Shown: positions 1 through 17,416 of the stretch, piece by piece
How the letters are laid out: the number at the start of each line of letters is the position of its first letter
Numbering within the stretch: the first letter of the stretch is position 1
Source: a virus
Lineage: Duplodnaviria > Heunggongvirae > Uroviricota > Caudoviricetes
Virus record (IMG/VR): IMGVR_UViG_2778261129_000006
Reading direction: 5' to 3' (one strand)
Length of the DNA stretch: 19,350 nt
Notes under the pieces: model-generated
Told to the model about the DNA's origin: nothing
What the model saw: only the letters and a program-made list of their open reading frames with translations
Databases searched by the model: none
Position numbers and translations under genes: made by a program

Positions 1-318
1 ATGAAAAAGATAGCTGCTATATCATTAATTAGTATTTTTATTATGTCTGGTTGTGCTGTGCATAATGATGAGACAAGTATCGGTAAATTTGGTCTTGCAT
101 ATAAAAGTAATATTCAGCGTAAACTCGATAACCAATACTACACCGAAGCCGAAGCTTCTTTAGCCAGGGGTAGAATATCTGGTGCAGAAAATATAGTAAA
201 AAATGATGCAACTCATTTCTGTGTTACTCAGGGCAAAAAAATGCAAATAGTTGAGCTGAAGACAGAAGGTGTAGGATTACATGGTGTCGCTCGTCTGACA
301 TTCAAATGTGGAGAGTGA
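1..318 (+). CDS. yegR: Small lipoprotein YegR (105 aa); host flanking gene
   Basis: ATG at 1, TGA at 316-318. N-terminal signal peptide with lipobox (IFIMSGC). Sequence recalled as E. coli YegR, a neighbour of yegQ/cyaR. Confidence 0.75.
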   Translation: MKKIAAISLISIFIMSGCAVHNDETSIGKFGLAYKSNIQRKLDNQYYTEAEASLARGRISGAENIVKNDATHFCVTQGKKMQIVELKTEGVGLHGVARLTFKCGE

Positions 319-429
319 GAATATTTTTTGGTAAGCGTCAAATATGCGCGTTCTGGCTGTGCGTAGCCGGAACCTGTGGGAGCACGATGCCGATAAGTGA
401 AAGGCATCGTGCTATGAAGGAGGATTCTA

Positions 430-444
430 TCGATGTGGTCAATG
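430..444. repeat. 15-bp sequence tcgatgtggtcaatg, identical copy at 17755-17769; contains an Int arm-type-like TGTGGTCA motif
   Basis: Exact 15-mer found at both prophage ends, on the low-coordinate side of each att core. Confidence 0.6.
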
Positions 445-477
445 GAAGACGGTTACCAGAGATAGGGCTTATGCATA

Positions 478-504
478 AAAAAATAAGCCCGTGTAAGGGA
501 TATT
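478..504. repeat. attL core: 26/27 match to the attR core (aaaaaataagcccgtgtaagggaTatt); degenerate copy of the CyaR 3' terminator
   Basis: Direct repeat of 17818-17844 with one mismatch at 501. Matches the recalled P2 att core AAAAAATAAGCCCGTGTAAGGGAGATT. Confidence 0.75.
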
Positions 505-583
505 TAGGGTGTCACCAGTAGGGGCTTTCAACGGTACAATGCGGGTTTGAGCGGCATAAATTACCACTGAAAGCCCTTAAACG

Positions 584-1597
584 TTACTCTACTGTGGACA
601 CTGTGTGGACACTCTCGGCCTCAGTACCACCTCTTAGCGGATTAAGAGAAATGGCGTCCTGAAGGTACTCTGGCGCAAAATGAGCGTAAACCATAGTTTG
701 CTCAATCCGCGTGTGACCTAGTATCCGTTGTAGCGTGATAATACTTCCTCCATTAATCATGAAATGAGTGGCAAAGCTGTGCCTTAGTGCATGTGTGGCT
801 TGCCCCGTTGGCAAATCCGGTTTTATTGCTTTCATTGTTCGTCTGAAGCGAGGGTAATCAGCATCAGGGAATAAAAAACCTCGTTTGTTATCCGCGATCA
901 TTTTGGCAACAGCCTCTGAGATCGGGACGGTGCGTGGTTTGTTTGTTTTCGTTTTAACAAACGTGACGCGGTTATGGATGATATTTTCTGCTTTCAAACG
1001 AGCTGCTTCTCCCCAACGTGCTCCTGTACTCAGGCAAAGAATCGCAATCTTTTTATTGTCGCCGTCAAGTGCTGCAAGCAGTAAGGCAATTTCTTCCTGT
1101 GTGAGATAGCCTGTTTCTGGTTTTTCCTCCTTAAGCCTCTTTGTCCCTCTGATAGGGTGCTCACCAAAGAATAACTCCGCTTCAATCAGGGCTGTAAACA
1201 TGCCGCTAATACATGTTAAATCACGATTGATACTCGAAGGTTTAATACCCTGACTTCTTCGGGTGGCGCAGTACTGGCTGATAAGGGATTTCGTGATTTG
1301 AAATGCGCATGGGTCATTCGTTATTTTTGTGAAGATTTCAATTTTTCCAAGATTAGATTTCCCATGCTCTTCGTGTTTACCCTTTAAATCCCACCAGATC
1401 TGTGTCAGTTCCGACAGACGTCGTTTGTCTGTTGGTTTTGATAGCCATTCTTTATTGTGGTGGTTGTACAACGTGTATTTTTCGAAAGCGACAGCTTCGC
1501 TTTTCTTATCAAACTTCCTACGGATGCGTTTTCCATTACGTCCAGTAGGGCGGATGTCCACTTCATATCGACCATCATCGAGTTTTTTGATTGCCAT
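584..1597 (-). CDS. int: Tyrosine recombinase / phage integrase, P2 Int-like (337 aa)
   Basis: ATG at 1597 with GGAGG SD 8 nt upstream. Catalytic R (ARWGE), H-x-x-R (HALRHSF) and Y (MVYAHF) motifs. Length and N-terminus (MAIKKLDDGRYEVDIRP) as recalled for P2 Int. 3' end abuts attL. Confidence 0.9.
   Translation of the reverse strand: MAIKKLDDGRYEVDIRPTGRNGKRIRRKFDKKSEAVAFEKYTLYNHHNKEWLSKPTDKRRLSELTQIWWDLKGKHEEHGKSNLGKIEIFTKITNDPCAFQITKSLISQYCATRRSQGIKPSSINRDLTCISGMFTALIEAELFFGEHPIRGTKRLKEEKPETGYLTQEEIALLLAALDGDNKKIAILCLSTGARWGEAARLKAENIIHNRVTFVKTKTNKPRTVPISEAVAKMIADNKRGFLFPDADYPRFRRTMKAIKPDLPTGQATHALRHSFATHFMINGGSIITLQRILGHTRIEQTMVYAHFAPEYLQDAISLNPLRGGTEAESVHTVSTVE
594..613. repeat. Tandem direct repeats TGTGGACAC x2 (594-602, 605-613); putative Int arm-type binding sites on the P' arm
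   Basis: Two identical 9-mers 11 bp apart inside the int 3' end next to attL. Similar TGTGG(A/T)C motifs occur in the arm next to attR. Confidence 0.45.
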
Positions 1598-1712
1598 CAG
1601 AAAACCCTCCGAGTGGTACTTTTTTTTGCTACTACTAATCGCTTTTTTCGTGGTGGCTGAAATTTAGCCACCAATAGTAGGCACTTGTGATGAATATATT
1701 CACGATAAATTG

Positions 1713-2012
1713 TTAACCAGTCTTTTGACCGGAGTGGGGCGACGTTGTTTCGTTTTGCCCAAAGTGTGCGAGAGCGGGCGCAATTTGCCCGGCTTCTGGA
1801 GCTACCTGATCAGTCATGAACCACAAAGTATATTTAGTAAATCTAGGATGTTGTAAGACCTTCATTATGGCTTCAACTCCAGCGTTTTTTGACCGGCTCT
1901 CATAGCTCGAAAGTGAGCTGTAGGCTACACCAGTTAATTCACTGAATTCTTTACGGTTTAACCTTTCAGATTCACGGATTAGCTTCAACTTCTCCGAAAC
2001 GTCTATTGACAT
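1713..2012 (-). CDS. C: Immunity repressor, P2 C-like (99 aa)
   Basis: ATG at 2012 with GGAG SD. The ORF-track start at 2084 is an upstream extension. C-terminal half (FTKYTLWFMT...APALAHFGQNETTSPHSGQKTG) as recalled for P2 C. Divergent from cox. Confidence 0.75.
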   Translation of the reverse strand: MSIDVSEKLKLIRESERLNRKEFSELTGVAYSSLSSYESRSKNAGVEAIMKVLQHPRFTKYTLWFMTDQVAPEAGQIAPALAHFGQNETTSPHSGQKTG

Positions 2013-2090
2013 AATTACTCCGATTGCGTAATTTCTTGCTGATAGTGTGAAATGTTGTGCTTCTGGAGTTATCCTTTTAGGCAATAATTA

Positions 2091-2108
2091 GCCATTAGGA
2101 GCCATTAG
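2091..2108. promoter_or_regulatory. Direct repeats GCCATTAG x2 (2091-2098, 2101-2108) in the C/cox divergent control region; candidate repressor operator
   Basis: Two 8-bp direct repeats 10 bp centre to centre, about 26 bp upstream of the cox ATG. P2-type repressors bind direct repeats at the early promoter. Confidence 0.3.
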
Positions 2109-2133
2109 AAGCACTAAGGGAGAATCGTAGCAG

Positions 2134-2409
2134 ATGAATAGACAGCTTGTAAGCGTGACTGATGCCGTGCCTTATCAGGAGTTTGCAAAACTCATTGGTA
2201 AAACTCCAAGAGCTGTAAGGGGCATGATTGAGAAAGGGAAATTACCAGTTATTGAGATTACTGACCCTCAGTCAGTATCGGGGCGTGCTGGTGAATATTG
2301 GGTATACCTTCCGGCATGGAATAACGGACTAAAACTGGCTTATGAAAGCCGTCCTAAAGAGATTCGTGACGGCTGGTTGATGTGGTTAGGTCTCGGTGAA
2401 CCACGTTAA
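2134..2409 (+). CDS. cox: Cox excisionase / early-promoter regulator, P2 Cox-like (91 aa)
   Basis: Sequence (PYQEFAKLIGK...GKLPVI...GRAGEYWVYLPAWNNGLKLAYESRPKEIRDGWLMWLGLGEPR) as recalled for P2 Cox. Same 91-aa length. Confidence 0.85.
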   Translation: MNRQLVSVTDAVPYQEFAKLIGKTPRAVRGMIEKGKLPVIEITDPQSVSGRAGEYWVYLPAWNNGLKLAYESRPKEIRDGWLMWLGLGEPR

Positions 2410-2419
2410 GGAGAACCGT

Positions 2420-2590
2420 ATGAATGAGCCTCGTTGTATTGCTCAGTTATTGCGTAACGAAAGCCCTAGGGCGATTGACTTCACCATCACCCACGGTAAG
2501 GGGCGTAAGGGAATCATTATCCGCACCAAAAAACAGAGTCCGTTAAAAAAGGCTCTGACCTTTCTGAAAAGCCGGAGGGTCTGGAAATGA
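2420..2590 (+). CDS. Small hypothetical protein (56 aa) in the P2 orf78 position
   Basis: ATG at 2420 with AAGGAGA SD. Stop overlaps the B start (ATGA at 2587-2590). An in-frame upstream ATG at 2396 would overlap cox. Confidence 0.45.
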   Translation: MNEPRCIAQLLRNESPRAIDFTITHGKGRKGIIIRTKKQSPLKKALTFLKSRRVWK

Positions 2591-3087
2591 CAGTGATGAC
2601 GCTCAATCTCGTTGAAAAACAGCCAGCAGCTATGCGCCGGATAATTGGTAAGCATCTGGCCGTCCCTCGCTGGCAGGAGACATGCGATTATTATAATCAG
2701 ATGATGGAACGCGAACGGCTAACGGTTTGCTTCCATGCGCAGTTAAAACAGCGTCACGCAACGATGCGTTTTGAAGAAATGAACGACGTCGAACGTGAAC
2801 GGCTGGTTTGTGCAATTGATGAATTGCGTGGGGCATTCTCAAAACGCCGTCAGGTTGGCGCAAGTGAGTATGCATATATTAGTTTTTTAACAGTCAGTCA
2901 GCGTCGTACTTTATTTATGCATGCCGGATTGACTGAAAAAGAATTCAACCAGCCATACTGGCGAATTAATGAAGAATCATGTTACTGGCGTGATGCTTTA
3001 TTCCGTGCATTACGTGAATTATTCAGCCTGTTTGAGTATGCACCGACAATTCTGACGTCGGTAAAACCAGAGCAATATCTGCATTAA
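2587..3087 (+). CDS. B: Replication protein B, P2 gpB-like (166 aa)
   Basis: 166 aa, same length as P2 B. Position between cox and A. Start is translationally coupled to the upstream ORF. Confidence 0.75.
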   Translation: MTVMTLNLVEKQPAAMRRIIGKHLAVPRWQETCDYYNQMMERERLTVCFHAQLKQRHATMRFEEMNDVERERLVCAIDELRGAFSKRRQVGASEYAYISFLTVSQRRTLFMHAGLTEKEFNQPYWRINEESCYWRDALFRALRELFSLFEYAPTILTSVKPEQYLH

Positions 3088-3150
3088 ATAATTAACCAGA
3101 GTTTTTAATGCACTTAATCGTGCGGGGCTTCTTTTTGCCTGGAGAAAGTC

Positions 3151-3375
3151 ATGCATACAGTTTCTGAAAACAAGTGCGGTAAATACGCATTACTGCTGCA
3201 ACAGGCCAGAGCCGAAGCACATGCCGACGCAGCGACACGCTTTTCTTCTCATCTTGACGCCATGATTCGCCATATCACAAAGGCGGAGTTATCCCGCGTG
3301 GAGATAGTCGAGCTGCTCAGTCAGGAGTCGGAAAAATTTCACAATATCGGATTGTCTCGCGGGGAGGTGCTTTGA
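3151..3375 (+). CDS. Small hypothetical early protein (74 aa), P2 orf80-like position
   Basis: ATG with GGAGAAAG SD. Stop overlaps the next start (TGATG). Confidence 0.6.
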
Positions 3376-3674
3376 TGTCCTGTTCTCATTCAGTTGTATT
3401 ACTGAATAACGCCTTAAAAATCGCCGTTATGAAAAATGGCGATTTGTCTCTTATTCAACTTTGCCTTGATAAAGAAAAACGCGACATAACTGAATCTGTT
3501 ATCGCGATTTATCAGAATGAATTAAACCTCCTGTCTGATGTGGTCAATTTACTTGTTAAACGCGCTGTATTCCACAAGCAAATTTCCTCAGTGGATGAAC
3601 TGACAAAATTAACGACAGAACTTGCCAATTATTGCGCTGATGTATCCAGGAAACTTAACGATAAAAGGAGCTGA
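3375..3674 (+). CDS. Small hypothetical early protein (99 aa), P2 orf81-like position
   Basis: ATG at 3375 overlapping the upstream TGA, GGGGAGG SD. The ORF-track TTG at 3372 is less likely. Confidence 0.6.
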   Translation: MSCSHSVVLLNNALKIAVMKNGDLSLIQLCLDKEKRDITESVIAIYQNELNLLSDVVNLLVKRAVFHKQISSVDELTKLTTELANYCADVSRKLNDKRS

Positions 3675-3676
3675 TA

Positions 3677-3901
3677 ATGCCGGACAACGTAGATTTTATT
3701 CAGGAACAACAGGCTGAATTACTGGAGCGCCAGATTAACGCGGCAAGGGTAAAACATTGCGGTGCTTCTGCGCTGGTTTGCGAAGAGTGTAACGCGCCAA
3801 TACCTGCTGCCCGTCGTGCGGCTTACCCGTCAGCCACGCGTTGTGTTTCCTGTCAGTCAGTCTTTGAAGCAAAAAACAAACATTACCGGAGAACGGCATG
3901 A
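3677..3901 (+). CDS. TraR/DksA-family C4 zinc-finger protein (74 aa), P2 orf82-like
   Basis: AAGGAG SD. Four cysteines arranged as CxxC...CxxC (CEECNAP...CVSCQS), typical of phage TraR-like zinc fingers. Confidence 0.7.
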   Translation: MPDNVDFIQEQQAELLERQINAARVKHCGASALVCEECNAPIPAARRAAYPSATRCVSCQSVFEAKNKHYRRTA

Positions 3902-4173
3902 GTATTCGTATTGAAATTGGCGAACGTTATGTCGTTACCAGTGACAGCTTTCAGTTTATTCTCCACGAGAAAAAGAGAGCGGAAAGCGGTAAAAACGCCG
4001 GTCAGGAATGGCTGGCGGTGGTTGGTTATTACCCGAAATTAAGCCAGCTCGTTTCCGGCCTGATGCATCACGATATTCTTACCGGAAGCGCAAAGTCTTT
4101 TGCTGATTTAAACGCGCAGGTTGAGCAACTCAGCAAGCGTTGTTCAGAGGCTTTTGGCTCATATGGCCGTTAA
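3898..4173 (+). CDS. Small hypothetical early protein (91 aa), P2 orf83-like position
   Basis: ATGA overlap with the upstream stop. Its stop at 4171-4173 overlaps the A start region. Confidence 0.6.
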   Translation: MSIRIEIGERYVVTSDSFQFILHEKKRAESGKNAGQEWLAVVGYYPKLSQLVSGLMHHDILTGSAKSFADLNAQVEQLSKRCSEAFGSYGR

Positions 4174-6445
4174 AGCCTCCGGGCGTTTTGTCCCTCCGTC
4201 AGCATTTGCCGCAGGCACCGGTAAGACGTTTACCGGTGCTTATGCATGGAACGCGCCACGCGAGGCCGTCGGGCGCGAAAGACCCCTTACACGTGACGAG
4301 ATGCGTCAGGTGCAAGGTGTTTTATCCACGATTAACCGCCTGCCTTACTTTTTGCGCTCGCTGTTTACTTCACACTATGACTACATCCGGCGCAATAAAA
4401 GCCCGGTGCACGGGTTTTATTTCCTCACATCCACTTTTCAGCGTCGTTTATGGCCGCGCATTGAGCGTGTGAATCAGCGCCATGAAATGAACACCGACGC
4501 GTCGTTGCTGTTTCTGGCAGAGCGTGACCACTATGCGCGCCTGCCGGGAATGAATGACAAGGAGCTGAAAAAGTTTGCCGCCCGTATCTCATCGCAGCTT
4601 TTCATGATGTATGAGGAACTCAGCGATGCCTGGGTGGATGCACATGGCGAAAAAGAATCGCTGTTTACGGATGAGGCGCAGGCTCACCTCTATGGTCATG
4701 TTGCTGGCGCTGCACGTGCTTTCAATATTTCCCCGCTTTACTGGAAAAAATACCGTAAAGGACAGATGACCACGAGGCAGGCATATTCTGCCATTGCCCG
4801 TCTGTTTAACGATGAGTGGTGGACTCATCAGCTCAAAGGCCAGCGTATGCGCTGGCATGAGGCGTTACTGATTGCTGTCGGGGAGGTCAATAAAGACCGT
4901 TCTCCTTATGCCAGTAAACATGCCATTCGTGATGTGCGTGCACGCCGCCAGGCAAATCTGGAATTTCTTAAATCGTGTGATCTCGAAAACAGGGAAACCG
5001 GCGAGCGCATCGACCTTATCAGTAAGGTGATGGGCAGTATTTCTAATCCTGAAATTCGCCGGATGGAGCTGATGAACACCATTGCCGGTATTGAGCGTTA
5101 CGCCGCAGCAGAGGGTGATGTGGGGATGTTTATCACGCTGACCGCGCCGTCAAAGTATCACCCGACACGTCAGGTTGGAAAAGGCGAAAGTAAAACCGTC
5201 CAGCTAAATCACGGCTGGAACGATGAGGCATTTAATCCAAAGGATGCGCAGCGTTATCTCTGCCGTATCTGGAGCCTGATGCGCACGGCATTCAAGGATA
5301 ATGATTTACAGGTCTACGGTTTGCGTGTCGTCGAGCCACATCACGACGGAACGCCGCACTGGCATATGATGCTTTTTTGTAATCCGCGCCAGCGTAACCA
5401 GATTATCGAAATCATGCGTCGCTATGCGCTCAAAGAGGATGGCGACGAAAGAGGAGCCGCGCGAAACCGTTTTCAGGCAAAACACCTTAATCGGGGCGGT
5501 GCTGCGGGGTATATCGCGAAATACATCTCAAAAAACATCGACGGCTATGCACTGGATGGTCAGCTCGATAACGATACCGGCAGACCTCTGAAAGATACTG
5601 CCGCGGCTGTTACTGCATGGGCGTCAACGTGGCGCATCCCGCAATTTAAAACGGTTGGTCTGCCGACAATGGGGGCTTACCGTGAACTACGCAAATTGCC
5701 TCGCGGCGTCAGCATTGCTGATGAGTTTGACGAACGCGTCGAGGCTGCACGCGCTGCCGCAGACAGTGGCGATTTTGCGTTGTATATCAGTGCGCAGGGT
5801 GGGGCAAATGTTCCGCGCGATTGCCAGACTGTCAGAGTCGCCCGTAGCCCGTCGGATGAAGTTAACGAGTACGAGGAAGAAGTCGAGAGAGTGGTCGGCA
5901 TTTACGCGCCGCATCTCGGCGCGCGTCATATTCATATCACCAGAACGACGGACTGGCGCATTGTGCCGAAAGTTCCGGTCGTGGAGCCTTTGACTTTAAA
6001 AAGCGGCATCGCCGCGCCTCGGAGTCCTGTCAATAACTGTGGAAAGCTCACCGGTGGTGATACTTCGTTATCGGCTCCCACACCGACTGAGCATGCTGCA
6101 GCGGTGTTAAATTTTATAGATGAAGGGATTCTAAGTTGGACCGAGCCAGGCATTATGAAGGTACTTAGAGACTTATTGAGTAATGAACTGAAATGCAGTA
6201 ATCGTTCACAGCAGAGCTTTACTCCTTTCAATGGTCGAAGCTACTTTCCTGCCCCATCCGCCCGGTTGACAAGGCAGGAGAGAAAGACTATCCCGAAAAT
6301 TAAGGTTCTTCTTGCACAAAGTGACATTCAGGCTAGTTATTGGGAGCTTGAAGCTCTCGCTCGCGGAGCTGTTTTGGATTTTGGGCATAAGCGTTTTAAA
6401 TTTGATACCGATATCGACTTTTTTGACAGACAGCGTGAGTGGTAG
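4163..6445 (+). CDS. A: Replication initiation endonuclease, P2 gpA-like rolling-circle initiator (760 aa)
   Basis: Start at ATG 4163 (MAVKASGRFVPP), not the ORF-track ATG at 4121. HUH-type motifs HWHMMLF and AAGYIAKYISK. Length close to P2 A. This is not a P4 alpha primase-helicase. Confidence 0.9.
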   Translation: MAVKASGRFVPPSAFAAGTGKTFTGAYAWNAPREAVGRERPLTRDEMRQVQGVLSTINRLPYFLRSLFTSHYDYIRRNKSPVHGFYFLTSTFQRRLWPRIERVNQRHEMNTDASLLFLAERDHYARLPGMNDKELKKFAARISSQLFMMYEELSDAWVDAHGEKESLFTDEAQAHLYGHVAGAARAFNISPLYWKKYRKGQMTTRQAYSAIARLFNDEWWTHQLKGQRMRWHEALLIAVGEVNKDRSPYASKHAIRDVRARRQANLEFLKSCDLENRETGERIDLISKVMGSISNPEIRRMELMNTIAGIERYAAAEGDVGMFITLTAPSKYHPTRQVGKGESKTVQLNHGWNDEAFNPKDAQRYLCRIWSLMRTAFKDNDLQVYGLRVVEPHHDGTPHWHMMLFCNPRQRNQIIEIMRRYALKEDGDERGAARNRFQAKHLNRGGAAGYIAKYISKNIDGYALDGQLDNDTGRPLKDTAAAVTAWASTWRIPQFKTVGLPTMGAYRELRKLPRGVSIADEFDERVEAARAAADSGDFALYISAQGGANVPRDCQTVRVARSPSDEVNEYEEEVERVVGIYAPHLGARHIHITRTTDWRIVPKVPVVEPLTLKSGIAAPRSPVNNCGKLTGGDTSLSAPTPTEHAAAVLNFIDEGILSWTEPGIMKVLRDLLSNELKCSNRSQQSFTPFNGRSYFPAPSARLTRQERKTIPKIKVLLAQSDIQASYWELEALARGAVLDFGHKRFKFDTDIDFFDRQREW

Positions 6446-6533
6446 TTGAAAAAACGGTTGAACGGGGTAACAATATGTTATTGTTGAGGAATTGTTTGTT
6501 ATGGTTTAATTTTTATACACGGCAGAAAAGCAT

Positions 6534-7757
6534 ATGAGCATGGTTGAATGGATAAGCCACGAGAAAAAAGATAGCCTGATACTATTTGTACATGGATTAA
6601 ATGGTGGTTTGGAAACATGGAACTTTAATAAAGAAATTTCATTTCCAAAACTATTAGCAGAAGATGAAGATATTAGCAACGTATTTGATATTGCATGTTT
6701 CAATTATTTTACTAAATTCACACAAACGTATGCTAAAACGTCAGGATTCTTGGCTCGTATTTTCTTTAAGAAAAATAAGTTAGAGAGAAATTTACCAACT
6801 GATGAAATAGCTGAGTTATTGTATACTGAGATTAGAGTAACACTAAGTGATTACTCTCGAATTATAATAATCGCCCATAGTATGGGGGGGTTAATATCAA
6901 AAAATCTAATTCTAAAAAAAGTTGAGCATGAGGAACAATCTAATATAATTGGATTCATTTCGTTAGCAGTCCCTCACTTTGGTGCTAAATTAGCGAATAT
7001 AACTTCAATGGTATCTTCAAATGCTCAGTTAGTAGATCTTGGATTGTTAAGTGAAGCGACTGATACATTGAATAGGCGCTGGATAAATTGTAGCAAAAAA
7101 CTTCCTATCACTAGATATGTTTATGGATCTCATGACACTATAGTCGATAAAAAAAGCGCATTACCGATGGATAGTGAACGACATAACTCAATTGCAGTTA
7201 ATGAAGGGCATAGCTCAATTTGCAAGCCCGAAAATAGCTCGTCTACAGTGTTTGTTGCGGTAAAGCAATTTATTCAGCAGATAAATTTAGAAGCACCCAA
7301 GAAGATTTGCGTTGAGCGTTTTTCTGATGATAAACAATATGATAATGAGTATTTCGTCTTAAAAATGATTGTCGCAGATATACATCAGGATATCGCTCTG
7401 CATGCAAAGGAATATTATTATAATGCTGAGCTTGCGAGAAATATTTTTACGAGTGATTACGATAGAAAACAACTTGGTCATTTGTATTCTAAAATAAGGG
7501 AGATTTACCAGGAAGAGTATGAGCAATACATTGCAAATTCAATTTCCCCAGATAAATTTATTGCTGCTGTTCATAGACGAATAACCCAGGAGGATAAGTC
7601 GTCGTTAGATTCTCTTATAAAAAGTTTGGAAACGATACATAAGAAAGGAATGTTGCATCAACTGGCTAACAAAAATGACAGGGATATTGTCTGGTCATCT
7701 GAAACCAGCGTAGAAACTTTGGAGCAATTACGGCGAGGTAATCATGAAGAAAAATAA
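6534..7757 (+). CDS. Alpha/beta-hydrolase-fold effector protein with a helical C-terminal domain (407 aa); Lamassu LmuA-like / ABC-3C effector candidate
   Basis: Oxyanion-hole motif LILFVHGLNGG. Nucleophile elbow IIIAHSMGGL (GxSxG). Downstream acid and His candidates (GSHDTIVD, NEGHSSI). AT-rich. First gene of the cargo operon. Confidence 0.75.
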   Translation: MSMVEWISHEKKDSLILFVHGLNGGLETWNFNKEISFPKLLAEDEDISNVFDIACFNYFTKFTQTYAKTSGFLARIFFKKNKLERNLPTDEIAELLYTEIRVTLSDYSRIIIIAHSMGGLISKNLILKKVEHEEQSNIIGFISLAVPHFGAKLANITSMVSSNAQLVDLGLLSEATDTLNRRWINCSKKLPITRYVYGSHDTIVDKKSALPMDSERHNSIAVNEGHSSICKPENSSSTVFVAVKQFIQQINLEAPKKICVERFSDDKQYDNEYFVLKMIVADIHQDIALHAKEYYYNAELARNIFTSDYDRKQLGHLYSKIREIYQEEYEQYIANSISPDKFIAAVHRRITQEDKSSLDSLIKSLETIHKKGMLHQLANKNDRDIVWSSETSVETLEQLRRGNHEEK

Positions 7758-7896
7758 CTTGCCGTATATACCTCTTGATGAAGAGTATAGTTTGAATTTT
7801 GCTATGCTTGCCATTGCTATATCTATATTATCTCATAGCAAAAAAGGAGTGTTGTCATTAGATATTAATAAAATACAAATTTTTATGTATCTGTGA
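7744..7896 (+). CDS. Small ORF (50 aa); possibly the N-terminal part of a frameshifted middle-component gene
   Basis: ATG at 7744 with GAGGT SD 5 nt upstream. Overlaps the hydrolase gene end by 14 nt. Its TGA (7894-7896) overlaps the GTG start of the next ORF. Confidence 0.35.
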   Translation: MKKNNLPYIPLDEEYSLNFAMLAIAISILSHSKKGVLSLDINKIQIFMYL

Positions 7897-8258
7897 TAAA
7901 AAATCCATCAAAAATTGATTGTGCTCTTACAGTTTCGGGGAAAAAGCCTGCTTGTGTCGAGTCCCAGTTAACTTATACAATAAAGAGTTTTTCATCAAAT
8001 GTAGATATCTTATTCGACAATTCCAAAGTGAAATATCTTATAAAAATTATGTCATTGCGGGGATTGCTCTCAGCTGAGAAAAAAAATAATGAGAGTGTTA
8101 AATTATTTTTATCTGAAAAAGGTAAGGAATTTGCTAGCTCATTGACTGATGGATATTTTAAAGAAATAAAACGACTAGCCGAAGCATTGTTACCGCTACA
8201 AGCATTGCCTACCTCTAAGTTAAACTCTGTTATAAACAAAGTCTTCAAGGAGAAATGA
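7893..8258 (+). CDS. Small middle-component protein (121 aa from GTG); LmuC-like candidate
   Basis: Frame opens at 7872; first start is GTG at 7893 with no clear SD. Stop overlaps the ATPase start (ATGA at 8255-8258). A small coupled gene between effector and ATPase. Confidence 0.5.
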   Translation: MIKNPSKIDCALTVSGKKPACVESQLTYTIKSFSSNVDILFDNSKVKYLIKIMSLRGLLSAEKKNNESVKLFLSEKGKEFASSLTDGYFKEIKRLAEALLPLQALPTSKLNSVINKVFKEK

Positions 8259-10225
8259 TGAAATCATATCTCAATATCAATAGTTTGATTCTTGTTGGCG
8301 TTCGTAAAAACTACGTCACTACTTTTTATAAAGGTCTCAATGTTATCTACGGAGACTCTGACACAGGTAAGTCAAGTATTCTGGAGTTTATTAATTATCT
8401 TTTAGGTGCTAGTTCTATAGATTTAGCAGATGAAATAAAAACATCAGTAAACTATGCTGCTCTTGAAGTAGTGATCAATGATACTGTATTCACAATCGTA
8501 AGAGATATCTATGATCATAAAAAATCAATAGAAGTTTATCGTTGTAAGTTTGATGATTTACATAAACACTTTCCGAAAAAATACGCTCCTAATTATAGCC
8601 CCTTATCAAATGTTGATGGCGTTTTTTCAGAGTTTTTACTTGATAGTCTTAATTTTCCAAAAATTGAAATTAAGGTGTCTCCTTCTAAAGCACATTCACA
8701 GATGCGCAGGTTAAGCTTTAGAAATATATATAAATTTGTTTATGTAAGTCAGGATGATATTGGTAGTAAATCATTCTTACGATTGGAGGATTGGTCCCGT
8801 TACGCATTTACGAAAGAAGTTTTTAAATACATGTTCAATGTGTTGGATGAAAGCATCGCCAGACTCCAAGGTGAAATATCTGCAAAAAGTAGTTTAGTAA
8901 CGGAACTAAATAAGAAGTATCAGATAATATCTGAATTTCTTCGCGATACAGACTATGAAACAATTGAATCAATTGATGATGAGATTAATAGGATAGATCT
9001 TATTTTAGAAGAACTTGTTGCAGGTTTGTCTGCTCTCGATAAAAATATGAAAGCGGATTCCATGCAGTATACAGAATTGAAAGATGCCCACAATTTTATT
9101 TCGCTTAAATACAAGGAGTGCATATTAAATATTAGCACGCTTGAGGATAAGATTGATAAATATTCGCGGTTAAAAAATGACTATGATAATGATATTGAAA
9201 AACTCAAAGCGATTAAAACAGCAAATTCTCGCATTGGTGTATTGGATAAGGAAGTATTTTCCTGTCCGATCTGTGATAGCCACATTAAAATAGATGATTC
9301 CGATTTTCCATTTGAAATTTCATCAGAAAAAGATCTTAATGAAGAGTTGAATTCACTTAGTCGACGTAGACGAAATATTAATGACATGATCTCAGAAATG
9401 TCATTTAAATTAAAAAAAGAATCTGGTTATAAAAAAGAATTAGATGAACAACTTGACGAGTTGAGAGAGTTAATTGACGAAGAAAGCCAGTCAATGATTA
9501 CACCATTCTTGACTCAGAGAGATTTTTATATTAAAGAGATATCAAAAAACGAGAAGGTTAGGGAGCAGTTAGTAAAAGATTTGAAGGTTAGAAACCAGCA
9601 AGAGGAACTGCTTGAAAAGCATCAGGTACTGATAAAAGATATTGAAACATTAACTGAACGCTTGGATGCGTTAAAGAAAAACGCACCTAGTATGGAAGGC
9701 ATTTTACAAGGTTTAGGTGATAGATTTAGTCAGTATTTGAAGGGTATTAATATCAAAAACAGAACGGGGATAAAAATCTCTGAAAGATATTACACCCCTG
9801 TTATAAGAGGAAAGGAATATTTTAAAATAACGTCCGGAGGTTTGAGAACTATTTCTTCTATTGGGTATCTTTTGTCTATTCTTGATTATGCAATAGACCA
9901 TAATGTTAACCATCCTTTACTTTTGATATTTGATACGGTTGGTAAATATTTAGGGAAACAGACCAAGGAAAAATACTCAAAAGAAACTCTTGCAGTCGAG
10001 GATGACCTTGAGGGGATGTCAGACCCGATGAAGTATCAAAATATTTATGAGCAACTATTGAATACAGTTCAAAAAGCAGAAAGAAAAAATGTTCCGTGCC
10101 AGATTATATTAGTTGATAATGATTTGCCTAATTCGTTTTCTACTGGTGAACTTTCGAATATTATCGCTCATTATAGCTCGGTTGGTGAGGATGGTTTGCC
10201 TTTAGGTTTAATTGATGACCTTTAA
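8255..10225 (+). CDS. SMC/Rad50-like ABC ATPase with coiled-coil insert (656 aa); Lamassu LmuB-like candidate
   Basis: Degenerate Walker A YGDSDTGKSS (8348-8377). Long heptad-rich coiled-coil region with a central CPIC motif (9263-9274). ABC signature-like TSGGLR (9829-9846). Walker B-like LLLIFD followed by T, not E. CAAGGAGA SD. Confidence 0.8.
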   Translation: MMKSYLNINSLILVGVRKNYVTTFYKGLNVIYGDSDTGKSSILEFINYLLGASSIDLADEIKTSVNYAALEVVINDTVFTIVRDIYDHKKSIEVYRCKFDDLHKHFPKKYAPNYSPLSNVDGVFSEFLLDSLNFPKIEIKVSPSKAHSQMRRLSFRNIYKFVYVSQDDIGSKSFLRLEDWSRYAFTKEVFKYMFNVLDESIARLQGEISAKSSLVTELNKKYQIISEFLRDTDYETIESIDDEINRIDLILEELVAGLSALDKNMKADSMQYTELKDAHNFISLKYKECILNISTLEDKIDKYSRLKNDYDNDIEKLKAIKTANSRIGVLDKEVFSCPICDSHIKIDDSDFPFEISSEKDLNEELNSLSRRRRNINDMISEMSFKLKKESGYKKELDEQLDELRELIDEESQSMITPFLTQRDFYIKEISKNEKVREQLVKDLKVRNQQEELLEKHQVLIKDIETLTERLDALKKNAPSMEGILQGLGDRFSQYLKGINIKNRTGIKISERYYTPVIRGKEYFKITSGGLRTISSIGYLLSILDYAIDHNVNHPLLLIFDTVGKYLGKQTKEKYSKETLAVEDDLEGMSDPMKYQNIYEQLLNTVQKAERKNVPCQIILVDNDLPNSFSTGELSNIIAHYSSVGEDGLPLGLIDDL

Positions 10226-10353
10226 TACTATACATGCATTTTTTTGAATTAGATTGCATGTGGATAATGAGTCTATTTAGTGAAGGGAAGGTTTTGTGTG
10301 ACGTGACTTTCGATAAAATTCAACCGCATTAAAACCGCCCCATGAAGCGGGCG

Positions 10354-10372
10354 GGCGAGGCGGGGAAAGCAC
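10354..10372. other. cos cohesive-end site, P2-type 19-mer GGCGAGGCGGGGAAAGCAC
   Basis: Exact match to the recalled P2 cohesive end. Lies in a GC/GT-rich non-coding region between the cargo and portal gene Q, as in P2. Confidence 0.6.
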
Positions 10373-10513
10373 TGCGCGCTGGCGGTGGTGCTGATTTTAT
10401 TTTTTAGCGTCTCAGCGCGTCGTGATGGCGTTTAGATTGTGCGCCGGGGCGTTGGTGTGTCTGCGGGGTGTTTTGTGCGGTGGTGAGCGTGTGAGGGCGT
10501 GATGACGGGGTGT

Positions 10514-10535
10514 AAAAAAGCCGCCCGCAGGCGGC
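10514..10535 (-). terminator. Rho-independent terminator downstream of Q (minus strand)
   Basis: Stem gccgcc/ggcggc with a 4-nt loop (10520-10535). The A6 run at 10514-10519 on the plus strand is a U-tract after the hairpin on the minus strand. Confidence 0.5.
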
Positions 10536-10540
10536 GATGT

Positions 10541-11515
10541 TCAGCCGTTGTCAGTGTCCAGTGAGTAGTTTTTAAAGCGGATGACCTCCTGACCGAGCCA
10601 GCCGTTTATCTCACGGATCCTGTCCTGTAACGGGATAAGCTCATTGCGGACAAAGACCTTTGCCACTTTCTCAATATCACCCAGCGACCCGACGTTCTCC
10701 GGCTTGCCGCCCATCAACTGAAAGGGGATGCGGTGCGCGTCCAGCAGGTCTGCGGCACTGGCTTTTTTGATATTAAAAAAATCGTCCTTCGTCGCCACTT
10801 CACTGAGCGGGATAATTTTAATGCCGTCGGCTTTTCCCTGTGGGGCATAGAGAAACAGGTTTTTAAAGTTGTTGCGGCCTTTCGACTTCACCATGTTTTC
10901 GCGAAGCATTTCGATATCGTTGCGATCCTGCACGGCATCAGTGACGTACATGATGTATCCGGCATGTGCGCCGTTTTCGTAATACTTGCGGCGGAACAGC
11001 GTGGCCGACTCATTCAGCCAGGCAGAGTTAAGGGCGCTGAGATATTCCGGCAGGCCGTACAGCTCCTGATTAATATCGGGCTCCAGCAGGTGAAACACGG
11101 AACCGGGCGCGAAGGCTGTCGGTTCGTTGAAGGACGGCACCCACCAGTAAACATCCTCCTCCACGCCACGGCGGGTATATTTTGCCGGTGAGGTTTCCAG
11201 TCTGATGACCTTACCGGTGGTGCTGTAACGCTTTTCCAGAAACGCATTACCGAACACCAGAAAATCCAGCACAAAGCGGCTGAAATCCTGCTGGGAAAGT
11301 CGCCGAAAATCGCCAGTGTGCATCAGTTCGGTCTGTCGGAAGAAACCCGGAAAGACGGTAAGAAAATTGATTATCCGGCGCGTCCTCTGCTCGGCTTTAC
11401 CGGTGAGGATGTGCAGATGATTGAAGAGATTATCCTGGCTCACCTTGAGCGTTAGTTTTATCCAGGCAGAGGCTGATGCGCAATTAAACATTGAGCGGCC
11501 ATGCTGGTCGCTCAA
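10541..11515 (-). CDS. Q: Capsid portal protein, P2 gpQ-like; probably N-terminally truncated
   Basis: C-terminal region recalled as P2 portal. The longest frame starts only at TTG 11515 (first ATG at 11491), with an in-frame stop just upstream. 324 aa against about 344 aa recalled for P2 Q. Confidence 0.7.
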   Translation of the reverse strand: MSDQHGRSMFNCASASAWIKLTLKVSQDNLFNHLHILTGKAEQRTRRIINFLTVFPGFFRQTELMHTGDFRRLSQQDFSRFVLDFLVFGNAFLEKRYSTTGKVIRLETSPAKYTRRGVEEDVYWWVPSFNEPTAFAPGSVFHLLEPDINQELYGLPEYLSALNSAWLNESATLFRRKYYENGAHAGYIMYVTDAVQDRNDIEMLRENMVKSKGRNNFKNLFLYAPQGKADGIKIIPLSEVATKDDFFNIKKASAADLLDAHRIPFQLMGGKPENVGSLGDIEKVAKVFVRNELIPLQDRIREINGWLGQEVIRFKNYSLDTDNG

Positions 11516-11526
11516 TGTTTAGAGGC

Positions 11527-12312
11527 TTATGAGTGATTTTTATTTGATGCTTTGTATTCTACAACCTTCTTATTGGCGTAAAGGAATTTTGTATATGACA
11601 GGAATATAACCAGACCTGAAATGAAATAGATGAGGGATATTATTAATAATGCTTTTTTTTGGCTGTTATTATCTTTAATTTCCTGACTTAACCATTCCGA
11701 GTCCTCCTCGTTTAGCTGTAAGAGCTTATTGCAGGCGATCTCAGGAAGTGTGTCTTTTATAAATATGTTTCGTAGCCTCTTGCAATCGGCAAGGCTATAA
11801 GTTTTATTGAATTCAACTGTTTTATTGTTGAAGGATAAAAGAACTTTGTCACTATAAACATAGTACATCATATTTTTATATGGTATGCCTATGGCATCTC
11901 TTACTATAGCGGATTGTTTGTTGTGTATATAACATGCGAAGAGAATATAAATAATGCTGGACAGAATTACAATTATTGTTTTAATTATGTGTGGTGGTTT
12001 TGTTATGTCACCCCAGAAGCGAGTAAGAAAAAAATACGATGTTTTTAGTTTTCCATCAATCAGCCCCTGCTGTATCATTCTCACATCTTCGATGCCTGAT
12101 ACATTGATTCCGTTAATTATTTTAAATAGTTGAATGTCGCGCCATTTTTTGTCGAGCATTTTTAACTTTCTGTCTGAATACTCAAAATTGAAATGATGTG
12201 CAATAAACCTCATAAGATTACTTTTACCAAAGGTAATAAATGTTAATGCTATTAATAAAAATAGATACAAAGAGATAAACCACCACGCATTAGTCACATT
12301 ATCACTGAACAT
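11527..12312 (-). CDS. Membrane protein with three predicted TM segments (261 aa); unknown function; AT-rich cargo
   Basis: ATG at 12312 with GAGGAG SD 6 nt upstream. Hydrophobic helices at the N-terminus (WWFISLYLFLLIALTFITF), middle (IIKTIIVILSSIIYILFACYI) and C-terminus (ALLIISLIYFISGLVIFLSY). Base composition unlike the flanking phage DNA. Confidence 0.7.
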   Translation of the reverse strand: MFSDNVTNAWWFISLYLFLLIALTFITFGKSNLMRFIAHHFNFEYSDRKLKMLDKKWRDIQLFKIINGINVSGIEDVRMIQQGLIDGKLKTSYFFLTRFWGDITKPPHIIKTIIVILSSIIYILFACYIHNKQSAIVRDAIGIPYKNMMYYVYSDKVLLSFNNKTVEFNKTYSLADCKRLRNIFIKDTLPEIACNKLLQLNEEDSEWLSQEIKDNNSQKKALLIISLIYFISGLVIFLSYTKFLYANKKVVEYKASNKNHS

Positions 12313-12395
12313 TACGCTCTCCTCGAATGTTGTATGGTCGTTCTACAAATGAATCCAGATAGCATAACTTTTATATATTGTGCAATCTCACACGC

Positions 12396-12830
12396 ATGAA
12401 CACTCTCGCAAATATTCAGGAACTCGCGCGCGCACTGCGCAACATGATTCGTACCGGCCTTGTCGTCGAAACCAACCTTAAAGCCGGTCGCTGCCGTGTG
12501 CAGACCGGTGGCATGTGCACTGACTGGCTTCAGTGGCTGACCCATCGTGCCGGACGTTCGCGCACATGGTGGGCACCTTCCGTGGGGGAACAGGTGCTGA
12601 TTCTGGCTGTGGGCGGTGAACTCGACACGGCGTTCGTTCTGCCGGGGATTTATTCCGGCGATAACCCCGCGCCGTCTGCGTCGGCGGATGCCCTGCATAT
12701 CCGTTTCCCTGACGGGGCGGTGATTGAGTATGAACCCGAAACCAGTGCACTCACGGTAAGAGGAGCTTCTCTGGTGGTGTCTACGTGCTGTTGTCAGCCA
12801 GGTGGATTTGTTAATGGAACGCTTTGTTGA
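12396..12830 (+). pseudogene. V: Baseplate spike gpV fragment: first ~115 codons V-like, then unrelated sequence
   Basis: MNTLANIQELARALRNMIRTG...EYEPETSALTV as recalled for the P2 V N-terminus. The ORF then reads RGASLVVSTCCCQPGGFVNGTLC and stops; P2 V is about 211 aa. Confidence 0.7.
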
Positions 12831-13081: not shown

Positions 13082-14196
13082 TTATATTTTTTCGCAAAAA
13101 GAAGAATAATCTCCACAGATTAAGCAACTGACAAGCTCTCTTTGTGCGGGATATATTTGGGACTCATTTACAAGCCCTGTATATGGTAAGAGTGATTTAT
13201 GTATCAAGTTAAAAACGTGAGACTTCTCATTAGTTGTTAAACTTTTTTTGGATAATATGGATGCCAAGTGCTCAACGCAAATAACCAGCCATGCATTAAA
13301 CATTTTTACTATTTCTGCTTCATTTTTATTGCTTGATAAGATATAAATCAAACCTGTTTGTAATACCAAGGCTCTTTGTTTAATGGAGAAAGATGTTTTA
13401 GATAGATGTGGTTCTTCATGGCGATTCAGAGAGTAGTAGCCCTTTCTTGCCAGTATAGATATCGTATTAGCTACAGTTAGGCTCTGGCAAGAAAAAAGCA
13501 TATCCTCATAGACTGAAATTGATGGGTTAAATAAGATGTTGTTATTGATTAGCAACTCTCTTTTAAAGAACTTGAAGATTTTTAATGATCTAAAAAGATG
13601 GTTTTTTATAATATCTGCTTTATTCGTGTCTGCCTTAAATGGGCGTACAGGAACCCCTCTCCCTGTAGAGGAAACCTGCTTGAAATATACAATGTCACTA
13701 TTGTTTTTATAAGCCATCTGAATACCATCGGACAGTAAGTCAGAGTGAATGGAATCATCAGAGTCTAAGAAAAACACATAGCGACCTTTTGCGGATTTTA
13801 TTCCCTCATTTCGCGGCGCTGATGCATTCCCTGAACCAACTGCTCTACGGATAATACGATAATTTATTTCTCTCGAAATGTTATATTCAATGGCGGCAAT
13901 GCTCCTGTCAGTGGAACAGTCATCAATGAAAATAACTTCAAAACAATTTTTATCTATAGTCTGATTGTTTAAAGATTTAATGCATTCGAGAATAAGGGTT
14001 TCTCGGTTGTGAACCGGAATAACAACTGAGACATCAAAGGGATAAATAGAATTAATTTCATTAATTACCGTTGTGATTTTTAGAAGAGAAGTATGCAGGG
14101 CTGTTGTTAAAACAGCAGAAGATGAAATGTTTTCTTTTTTAGTGTTGCCTTTTATAGTATAATAAGGGCAATTATTTCGTAGTACAAAATCCACAT

Positions 14197-14200
<4 letters not shown>
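13082..14200 (-). CDS. Family-2 (GT-A fold) glycosyltransferase (372 aa from GTG)
   Basis: VSVVIPVHNRE motif, FIDDCSTD and FLDSDD (DxD) motifs. AT-rich. The only start in frame is GTG at 14200, overlapping the stop of the upstream small ORF, with no obvious SD. Confidence 0.8.
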
Positions 14201-16636: not shown

Positions 16637-17416
16637 ATGGCAATGCCGCGCAAACTCAAGTTAATGAACGTCTTTCTGAACGGCTACAGCTATCAGGGCG
16701 TTGCAAAGTCCGTCACGCTGCCAAAACTGACCCGTAAGCTCGAAAACTATCGCGGTGCGGGGATGAACGGCAGCGCACCGGTAGACCTCGGCCTTGATGA
16801 CGATGCGCTGTCAATGGAGTGGTCGCTCGGTGGATTCCCGGATTCGGTTATCTGGGAGCTTTACGCCGCAACCGGTGTGGATGCCGTGCCGATTCGTTTT
16901 GCAGGCTCTTACCAGCGCGACGATACAGGCGTAACGGCAAAGTGGTTACACACCAAAGACCCGAAACCGCAAAAGCAGAAGGTAAAACTGAAACGCAAAA
17001 AGAAAGAGAAACACCTGCGCGCACTGGAGCACCCGAACGCGAAACCGGTCAGGCAGAAGAAAGCGCCTAAAGTACCGGAAGCGCGTGAAGGTGAATACAT
17101 GGCCGGTGAGGCTGACAACGTTTTTGCCCTGACCACGGTATATGCCACGAAAGCGCAGGCCATGCGCGCCGCTCAGGCGAAGTGGGATAAGCTGCAACGG
17201 GGCGTTGCGGAGTTCTCCATCAGTCTGGCTACCGGTCGTGCTGATATTTACACGGAAACACCGGTTAAAGTGTCAGGCTTTAAGCGCGTCATAGACGAGC
17301 AGGACTGGACAATCACTAAGGTGACACATTTTCTGAATAATAGCGGCTTCACGACGTCCCTGGAGCTTGAGGTCAGGCTTTCTGATGTGGAGTACGAAAC
17401 AGAAGATGATGAGTGA
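16637..17416 (+). CDS. Chimeric ORF: tail tube gpFII N-terminus (~97 aa) fused in frame to a Lys-rich segment and the gpD C-terminus (259 aa)
   Basis: N-terminus MAMPRKLKLMNVFLNGYSYQGV...SYQRDDTG recalled as P2 FII (172 aa in P2). C-terminus ...WTITKVTHFLNNSGFTTSLELEVRLSDVEYETEDDE resembles the late-control D protein (yegZ-like). E, T and U are absent. Confidence 0.65.
   Translation: MAMPRKLKLMNVFLNGYSYQGVAKSVTLPKLTRKLENYRGAGMNGSAPVDLGLDDDALSMEWSLGGFPDSVIWELYAATGVDAVPIRFAGSYQRDDTGVTAKWLHTKDPKPQKQKVKLKRKKKEKHLRALEHPNAKPVRQKKAPKVPEAREGEYMAGEADNVFALTTVYATKAQAMRAAQAKWDKLQRGVAEFSISLATGRADIYTETPVKVSGFKRVIDEQDWTITKVTHFLNNSGFTTSLELEVRLSDVEYETEDDE

Follow-up and report, generated by a model that had tools for sequence, protein, structure and literature searches.

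The locus and its genes

We analysed a stretch of 19,350 nucleotides from a virus (Duplodnaviria; Heunggongvirae; Uroviricota; Caudoviricetes; IMG/VR virus record IMGVR_UViG_2778261129_000006), hereafter the window, centring on the open reading frame (ORF) at 8255-10225 on the plus strand. This ORF is the last gene of an operon of low GC content, lmuA-lmuC-lmuB, which a defective P2-like prophage of Escherichia coli B carries as cargo in its gpA-gpQ defence hotspot (Table 1). We propose, with a probability of roughly 0.88, that it encodes LmuB and that this LmuB serves as sensor ATPase in an anti-phage system of the short Lamassu (ABC-3C) kind, type II with three genes and a hydrolase effector, carried in the P2-like prophage hotspot. 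The protein is a miniature Rad50, in which an antiparallel coiled coil with arms of about 125 residues splits the ATP-binding cassette (ABC) head and carries a single CPxC at its apex.

Table 1. Features of the operon, of the LmuB protein and of the hotspot borders. Positions are those of the window; LmuB residues are counted from the ATG at 8255.
Feature	Position	Strand	Evidence or remark
P2 gpA replication endonuclease, left border of hotspot	4121..6445	+	Pfam Phage_GPA 7e-124; RefSeq
lmuA	6534..7757	+	N-terminal alpha/beta-hydrolase (serine esterase/lipase-like) and C-terminal CTD8 docking domain
lmuC (ABC-3C middle component 4, MC4)	7744..8258	+	Pfam MC4 6e-19; PADLOC LmuC 3e-34
lmuB	8255..10225	+	Rad50/SMC-like ABC ATPase with short coiled coil; PADLOC, Foldseek, profile against PDB
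Walker A / P-loop GDSDTGKSS, residues 33-41 (K39)	8351..8377	+	G33, G38 and K39 invariant in 111 representatives
Q166, candidate Q-loop Gln	8750..8752	+	Position only; invariant in clade alignment A2; Q in 74/111 representatives
Ascending coiled-coil arm, residues 199-326	8849..9232	+	AlphaFold2 helix with breaks at 231-236 and 265-269; heptad z=4.1
CPIC hook motif, residues 337-340 (C337, C340)	9263..9274	+	Apical, inside connector 327-357; conservation, model, alignment to 9hqu_A
Descending coiled-coil arm, residues 358-476	9326..9682	+	AlphaFold2 helix; heptad z=2.5
TSGGLR, ABC signature-like, residues 526-531	9830..9847	+	S527 in 104/111, G529 in 106/111 representatives
Walker B LLLIFD, residues 555-560 (D560), then T561	9917..9937	+	T at the place of the catalytic Glu of ABC ATPases
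Strand QIILVD, residues 616-621, then N622	10100..10120	+	Place of the H-loop His of Rad50/SbcC (SbcC TIGVISH); manual positional alignment
P2 gpQ portal remnant, right border of hotspot	10541..11515	-	Pfam Phage_portal 3e-13; RefSeq pseudogene lacking the N-terminus

Identification of LmuB

Read from the ATG at 8255, the ORF comprises 656 residues and encloses the span 8348-9943, in which an earlier note on this DNA had described an ATPase with a Rad50-like CPxC motif in its coiled coil. Since LmuB homologues begin with MKSY and the RefSeq gene starts at the second ATG (8258), the true start probably lies one codon downstream, which would give a protein of 655 residues and lower every residue number by one. 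The PADLOC LmuB profile PDLC03862 matches residues 2-656 over profile positions 3-641 of 643 (E=1.2e-233), and 12 of the 13 further PADLOC matches of this ORF are to other LmuB profiles. Pfam adds weak matches to SMC_N and AAA_23 and no more. Against the PDB, the leading Foldseek matches are LmuB chains, 9uxh_F (4e-22), 9hqx_B, 9hqu_A, 9nyg_B and 9ux7_A, among which ranks 9a6c_A, an integrative model of Bacillus YydD/YydB; Rad50, SMC, JetC and MukB follow. A phmmer search of the PDB with the single LmuB sequence gave no match at E<=0.01, and the LmuB family profile matched Salmonella LmuB 9hqu_A at E=1e-11. The RefSeq product name is 'AAA family ATPase' only, and many homologues are named 'exonuclease SbcC' or 'Rad50' in database records. 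The practical value of the result lies in annotation, since the latter names are wrong and the RefSeq name is unspecific. Existing defence-system profiles recognise the whole locus.

Conserved and deviant motifs of the ATPase

Conservation was followed in two sets of sequences. The close set holds 114 full-length homologues with identity down to 44%. The representative set (n=111) derives from a profile search across 1.84 billion representatives of 50%-identity clusters, which returned 3230 relatives at E<=0.001, and consists of the 110 full-length sequences among the best 150 relatives together with the LmuB studied here. The motifs listed in the earlier note, namely Walker A, CPIC, TSGGLR and LLLIFD followed by T, are all present where it had placed them, and in alignments to Rad50, RecF and SbcC the Walker A stretch is paired with their P-loops. 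By chance, a CxxC would arise among 5 cysteines in 656 residues with P = 0.03, so that the single sequence is weak evidence and conservation decides. On this count the check that the note had proposed comes out in its favour: C337, P338, C340, D560 and T561 are each found in 114/114 close homologues, and both hook cysteines and D560 are retained in 111/111 representatives, with P338 in 110/111. The remaining three cysteines of LmuB are not conserved.

The number of CxxC motifs divides the representatives. A single copy is present in 45/111, which form the clade of the LmuB studied here, and two copies 13-24 residues apart in 66/111; none is without the motif. In the single-copy clade the second CxxC was either lost or never present. 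Residues 341-363 hold no conserved position within the clade alignment; with no other conserved ligand there, each protomer would contribute two zinc ligands. This tabulation agrees with the published LmuB tree, on which 0, 1 or 2 copies of CxxC have been mapped (Haudiquet et al., PMC12663957).

The absence of the catalytic glutamate, also pointed out in the earlier note, is itself a conserved property. After D560, the representatives carry T (54), S (47), G (6), N (2), A (1) or a gap (1), and neither E nor Q occurs. LLLIFD-T thus falls within hhhhD[Q/S/T/E], the Walker B consensus published for short Lamassu (Haudiquet et al., PNAS 2025, PMC12663957). In the family-profile alignment, D-T of this protein is paired with D-Q of 9hqu_A, and CPIC with CPMC. 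The distance from S527 to D560 is 33 residues, and that from SGG to the Asp of LDE in SbcC is 31; the alignment of TSGGLR to SbcC TLSGGE by the C-terminal profile was not significant (E=0.17, the signature motif alone being aligned). At residue 622, Asn is found in 98/111 representatives and His in 4/111, which suggests that the H-loop His is replaced by Asn622, a second probable change of the catalytic site beside that of the Walker B Glu. None of the three comparisons that bear on this H-loop assignment gave a significant alignment (C-terminal profile against the PDB, hhalign to E. coli SbcC, C-terminal profile against SbcC); the C-terminal profile, covering residues 505-645, had no PDB match even at E<=10.

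Predicted structure and the coiled-coil apex

An AlphaFold2 monomer model was built from a 54-sequence alignment (mean pLDDT, the predicted local distance difference test, 86.3; predicted template modelling score, pTM, 0.68). Its head lobes comprise residues 1-190 and 500-656, and its two helical arms measure 128 and 119 residues. Hydrophobic a/d periodicity, scored against shuffled sequence, is marked in both arms and ranges from z 0.3 to 1.0 in the head lobes, in keeping with the heptad-rich insert that the note had described. CPIC lies in a non-helical connector with a small beta-hairpin at residues 335-344 (strands 335-336 and 343-344). Since the note had named structure prediction as a check on its claim of an apical CxxC, we looked at this position in the monomer model, where the motif stands between the two arm helices and is thus predicted to occupy the apex of an antiparallel coiled coil. 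The helix break at 265-269 coincides with folding point FP1 (residues 266-276) of Salmonella LmuB.

Partner genes and the lmuC frameshift

The operon has the composition of a type II Lamassu, with an LmuA effector, a small LmuC and an LmuB, and its junctions overlap: the start of lmuC with the stop of lmuA, and the stop of lmuC with the start of lmuB. LmuA matches the PADLOC LmuA profile PDLC03851 at E=1.3e-108 and the Pfam families CTD8 (9e-36), a domain known from ABC-3C systems, and DUF676 (3e-9), as well as PGAP1, Abhydrolase_1 and LCAT. It shows a nucleophile elbow, AHSMGG, with S116, and His226 is the candidate catalytic histidine. The LmuC matches cover profile positions 48-166 of 168 only.

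In this copy the reading frame of lmuC is broken by a 2-bp duplication of TG at 7892-7893 (TCTGTGAT here versus TCTGAT in other genomes). As an alignment with the intact lmuC of another E. coli B-type genome shows, the gene is thereby divided into 7744-7896 (50 residues) and 7893-8258 (121 residues, with a GTG start). RefSeq correspondingly annotates two lmuC coding sequences in E. coli B REL606 and one of 170 residues elsewhere, and among the 96 complete E. coli genomes with the gene the insertion occurs in REL606 alone. The stop codon so created shares the bases GTGA with the GTG start, and translation might perhaps resume there, if we may speculate.

Prophage setting

The operon lies within a GC trough of ~32% over 6500-10000, between flanks of ~50%. 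Positions 6400-10400 are 100% identical to the E. coli B REL606 prophage beside yegR/yegS, and the operon occurs in about 96/5426 complete E. coli genomes, many O157:H7 strains among them. In P2-like prophages, the interval between gpA and gpQ is a hotspot of anti-phage cargo (Rousset et al. 2022, PMC9122126). A P4 satellite, considered because of an integrase and a long replication protein, was rejected, as the 774-residue protein is P2 gpA by its Phage_GPA match and the RefSeq annotation of the locus includes cox, gpA, portal and tail genes.

REL606, the ancestor of the long-term evolution experiment, thus carries a lipase-type Lamassu in a P2 remnant, with a strain-specific lmuC frameshift that could matter for the comparison of phage sensitivity among B strains. 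No publication turned up in a literature search that combined Lamassu with REL606, and none that mentions Lamassu stood among the top 15 matches of a broader search including BL21 and 'Escherichia coli B'.

Other parts of the prophage also depart from an intact P2-like element or from the reference. About 6 substitutions separate the window from REL606 across 1-12764. At a junction at ~12754-12764, with an 11-base overlap, ~4.8 kb of the REL606 reference is missing: gpV has lost its 3' end, the tail-fibre gene almost its entire length, and W, J and I are gone. This junction was found in no complete E. coli genome of the collection searched, and the window therefore differs from the plain reference. 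A 259-residue ORF at 16637-17416 (plus strand) joins Phage_tube (residues 4-100, the FII N-terminus) to Phage_GPD (residues 144-236, the gpD C-terminus), a fusion that indicates a further internal deletion in the defective prophage. Between the portal remnant and gpV, a 261-residue ORF at 11527-12312 (minus strand; GC ~35%) contains, judged by eye, several long hydrophobic segments that resemble membrane spans. It has no Pfam match above threshold and no PADLOC match, is hypothetical in RefSeq, and may represent a second piece of cargo in the prophage remnant. Among the tail genes, a low-GC gene at 13082-14200 (minus strand) encodes a family-2 glycosyltransferase (Glycos_transf_2, 1.6e-28), which may be moron or serotype-conversion cargo.

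Proposed mechanism

Published work on LmuB supplies the frame for an interpretation. In Salmonella LmuACB, the hook, the Walker A Lys and a head-engagement Ser are all needed for defence, and mutation of the hook abolishes it. The LmuB protomers of that complex bring their zinc-hook motifs into close juxtaposition, their coiled coils are folded back, LmuC and the C-terminal domain of LmuA lie beside the hook and keep the effector sequestered, and the enzyme hydrolyses ATP in a DNA-dependent manner at ~1 per minute (bioRxiv 10.1101/2025.03.14.643221). Bacillus LmuB dimerises through a CQYC Zn-hook distal to the heads, according to structural work of 2025; the structural papers of that year bear out both the hook and the deviant Walker B. 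A 2023 review describes a CPxCG zinc hook in many LmuB homologues and a Walker B Glu that is generally replaced, E-to-Q; it also reports that LmuC was required in every system where tested. Lamassu of Vibrio and E. coli sense DNA ends or replication origins, upon which LmuA is released and oligomerises (PMC12663957).

For the protein studied here, we draw each step of the mechanism from these solved and tested homologues. Two LmuB protomers would join at the apex, where one zinc would be held by two cysteines from each, as Zn(Cys)4 from two CPIC motifs. Such an intermolecular site is proposed by homology, since the clade has just one CPxC and nothing else conserved at the apex that could bind zinc. 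With the arms folded back, LmuC and the LmuA CTD8 domain would be kept near the hook and the effector sequestered. ATP binding would then allow the heads to engage on DNA ends or replication intermediates of an invading phage or plasmid. LmuA, once freed, would oligomerise, become active and damage the cell, presumably by hydrolysis of esters or lipids, and the infection would be aborted. As Thr stands in for the catalytic Glu, and Asn probably for the H-loop His, hydrolysis should be slow, the engaged state long-lived and the switch nearly one-way.

Both mechanistic suggestions of the earlier note fit this scheme. It had compared the CxxC to the Rad50 zinc hook used for dimerisation, and the alignment of the invariant, apically predicted CPIC with the CPMC zinc hook of Salmonella LmuB is consistent with that comparison. 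It had also suggested slow or regulated hydrolysis as in sensor-type SMC proteins, to which the pairing of D-T with the D-Q of the slow Salmonella ATPase likewise points. The zinc hook and the Glu-less Walker B, its T variant included, are already published for LmuB; the reading in the note was right and is not new, and the analysis adds little for the field in this respect.

Weighing the interpretation

Several observations weigh against the interpretation as LmuB of a working, zinc-hooked sensor. The solved LmuB maps have no resolved zinc atom, and Vibrio LmuB is functional without a hook, so that the hook is not obligatory in the family (PMC12663957). Confidence at the modelled apex is moderate (pLDDT 61-65), as is usual when a single chain is modelled with neither zinc nor partner, and the apical placement of CPIC in the model rests on topology, not on measured distances. 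What we propose about zinc, dimerisation and ATPase behaviour, for this LmuB as for the D-T clade, is carried over from homologues, and the ester or lipid substrate of LmuA is a presumption. Given the frameshift in lmuC and the requirement for LmuC, moreover, this particular Lamassu copy may be inactive. Finally, most representatives have a second CxxC downstream of the first, a four-Cys arrangement that a single chain could use to bind zinc.

This last observation leads to a different view of the motif, in which CPxC would be an intra-protomer structural zinc or disulphide knuckle at the turn, and dimerisation would be left to the coiled coils, LmuC and the heads. That Vibrio LmuB dimerises without any hook, and that extensive coiled-coil contacts between LmuB protomers are described in the literature, would both suit a knuckle. 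In the clade examined here, however, there is one CPxC only, and the apex loop offers no further conserved ligand. In the dimers of Salmonella and Bacillus LmuB, with one motif each, the motifs are closely juxtaposed, and the Salmonella hook mutant loses defence. We therefore consider a knuckle quite improbable and favour an intermolecular hook. Hardly any credence is due to the idea that the protein is a DNA-repair paralogue of SbcC/Rad50 working with a nuclease partner. The database names of many homologues invite it, as do the rank of Rad50 as the next-best fold match behind LmuB, a match of residues 18-83 to the Rad50 P-loop region (E=1e-4) and the proposed descent of Lamassu from SbcCD (PMC12663957). 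Yet neither the window nor the RefSeq annotation of the locus has an SbcD/Mre11 gene, and the real sbcDC operon lies elsewhere in the same genome. The arms are ~125 residues long in a 656-residue protein, compared with 1048 residues in total for SbcC, the Walker B Glu is absent, and hhalign of the family profile to E. coli SbcC joined the P-loop region alone (56 columns, probability 15%). The neighbours, within a prophage defence hotspot, are LmuA and LmuC. The protein is not a member of the Rad50/SbcC family; it works like a small Rad50 and belongs to LmuB.

A further question is whether LmuB of the D-T clade hydrolyses ATP at all, or whether it is a nucleotide-binding switch or a pseudo-ATPase scaffold. 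The lack of E or Q after the Walker B Asp throughout the representatives and the prevalence of Asn at the probable H-loop position would be compatible with a loss of hydrolysis, and the authors of the Salmonella study argued that engagement of the heads might by itself be enough to free the effector. Slow to moderate ATP hydrolysis is nevertheless known from LmuB proteins whose Walker B deviates in other ways, and ATP-gamma-S is no substitute for ATP in the Vibrio system. Walker A, the signature and the candidate Q-loop are strongly conserved, but this is expected for nucleotide binding too and so does not discriminate. On balance, complete loss of hydrolysis seems unlikely to us, and slow hydrolysis remains the preferred interpretation. 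Equally doubtful is the more specific proposal that the clade marked by D-[T/S], Asn and a single CPxC is a one-shot, ATP-binding-only latch with an intermolecular zinc hook and no hydrolysis; if it were true, this clade would be mechanistically unlike the D-Q LmuB whose slow turnover was measured.

Comparison with known systems

RloC, an anticodon nuclease, has a Rad50-like coiled coil bearing a CxxC hook. It is likewise a defence-associated ABC ATPase, described as responsive to zinc and as having an ABC ATPase domain in common with PrrC (PMC2610378). It differs from LmuB in being a single-chain tRNase without LmuA or LmuC partners. Rad50/SbcC shares with this LmuB the ABC head, the antiparallel coiled coil, the apical CPxC (CPLCGS in SbcC, CPICDS here) and, probably, the sensing of DNA ends; it is the proposed ancestor of Lamassu. 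It differs in its much longer coiled coils, in its D-E Walker B and H-loop His (LDE and ISH in SbcC), in its obligate Mre11/SbcD nuclease partner and in its task, which is repair and not abortive infection.

Within the LmuB family, DdmC of Vibrio cholerae (the LmuB of DdmABC; 9ny5/9nyg/9uxh), which provides the top Foldseek match 9uxh_F, resembles the protein studied here in family, in the three-gene organisation and in the deviant Walker B. Unlike this LmuB it has lost the zinc hook, and its effector is a Cap4 nuclease. Ec-Lipase Lamassu (short clade H; PMC12663957) is also from E. coli and likewise combines a lipase-type LmuA with a zinc-hook LmuB. Its defence against lambda-vir was shown by experiment and depends on the Walker A Lys as well as on the lipase His (PMC12663957). 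We compared it by published residue numbers, not by sequence, and on these the two proteins are not identical (K42/H215 there versus K39, or K38 with the later start, and H226 here). Salmonella enterica LmuB (PDB 9hqu/9hqx) has a similar length of ~650 residues; its ABC head is likewise split, and its coiled coil is short and folded. Both proteins have a single apical CPxC, aligned column for column, a Glu-less Walker B and an lmuA-lmuC-lmuB operon. Identity in the Foldseek alignment is ~15%, D-Q there corresponds to D-T here, and the effector is a Cap4-type nuclease in Salmonella versus an alpha/beta-hydrolase with CTD8, next to an MC4-type LmuC, in the operon described here.

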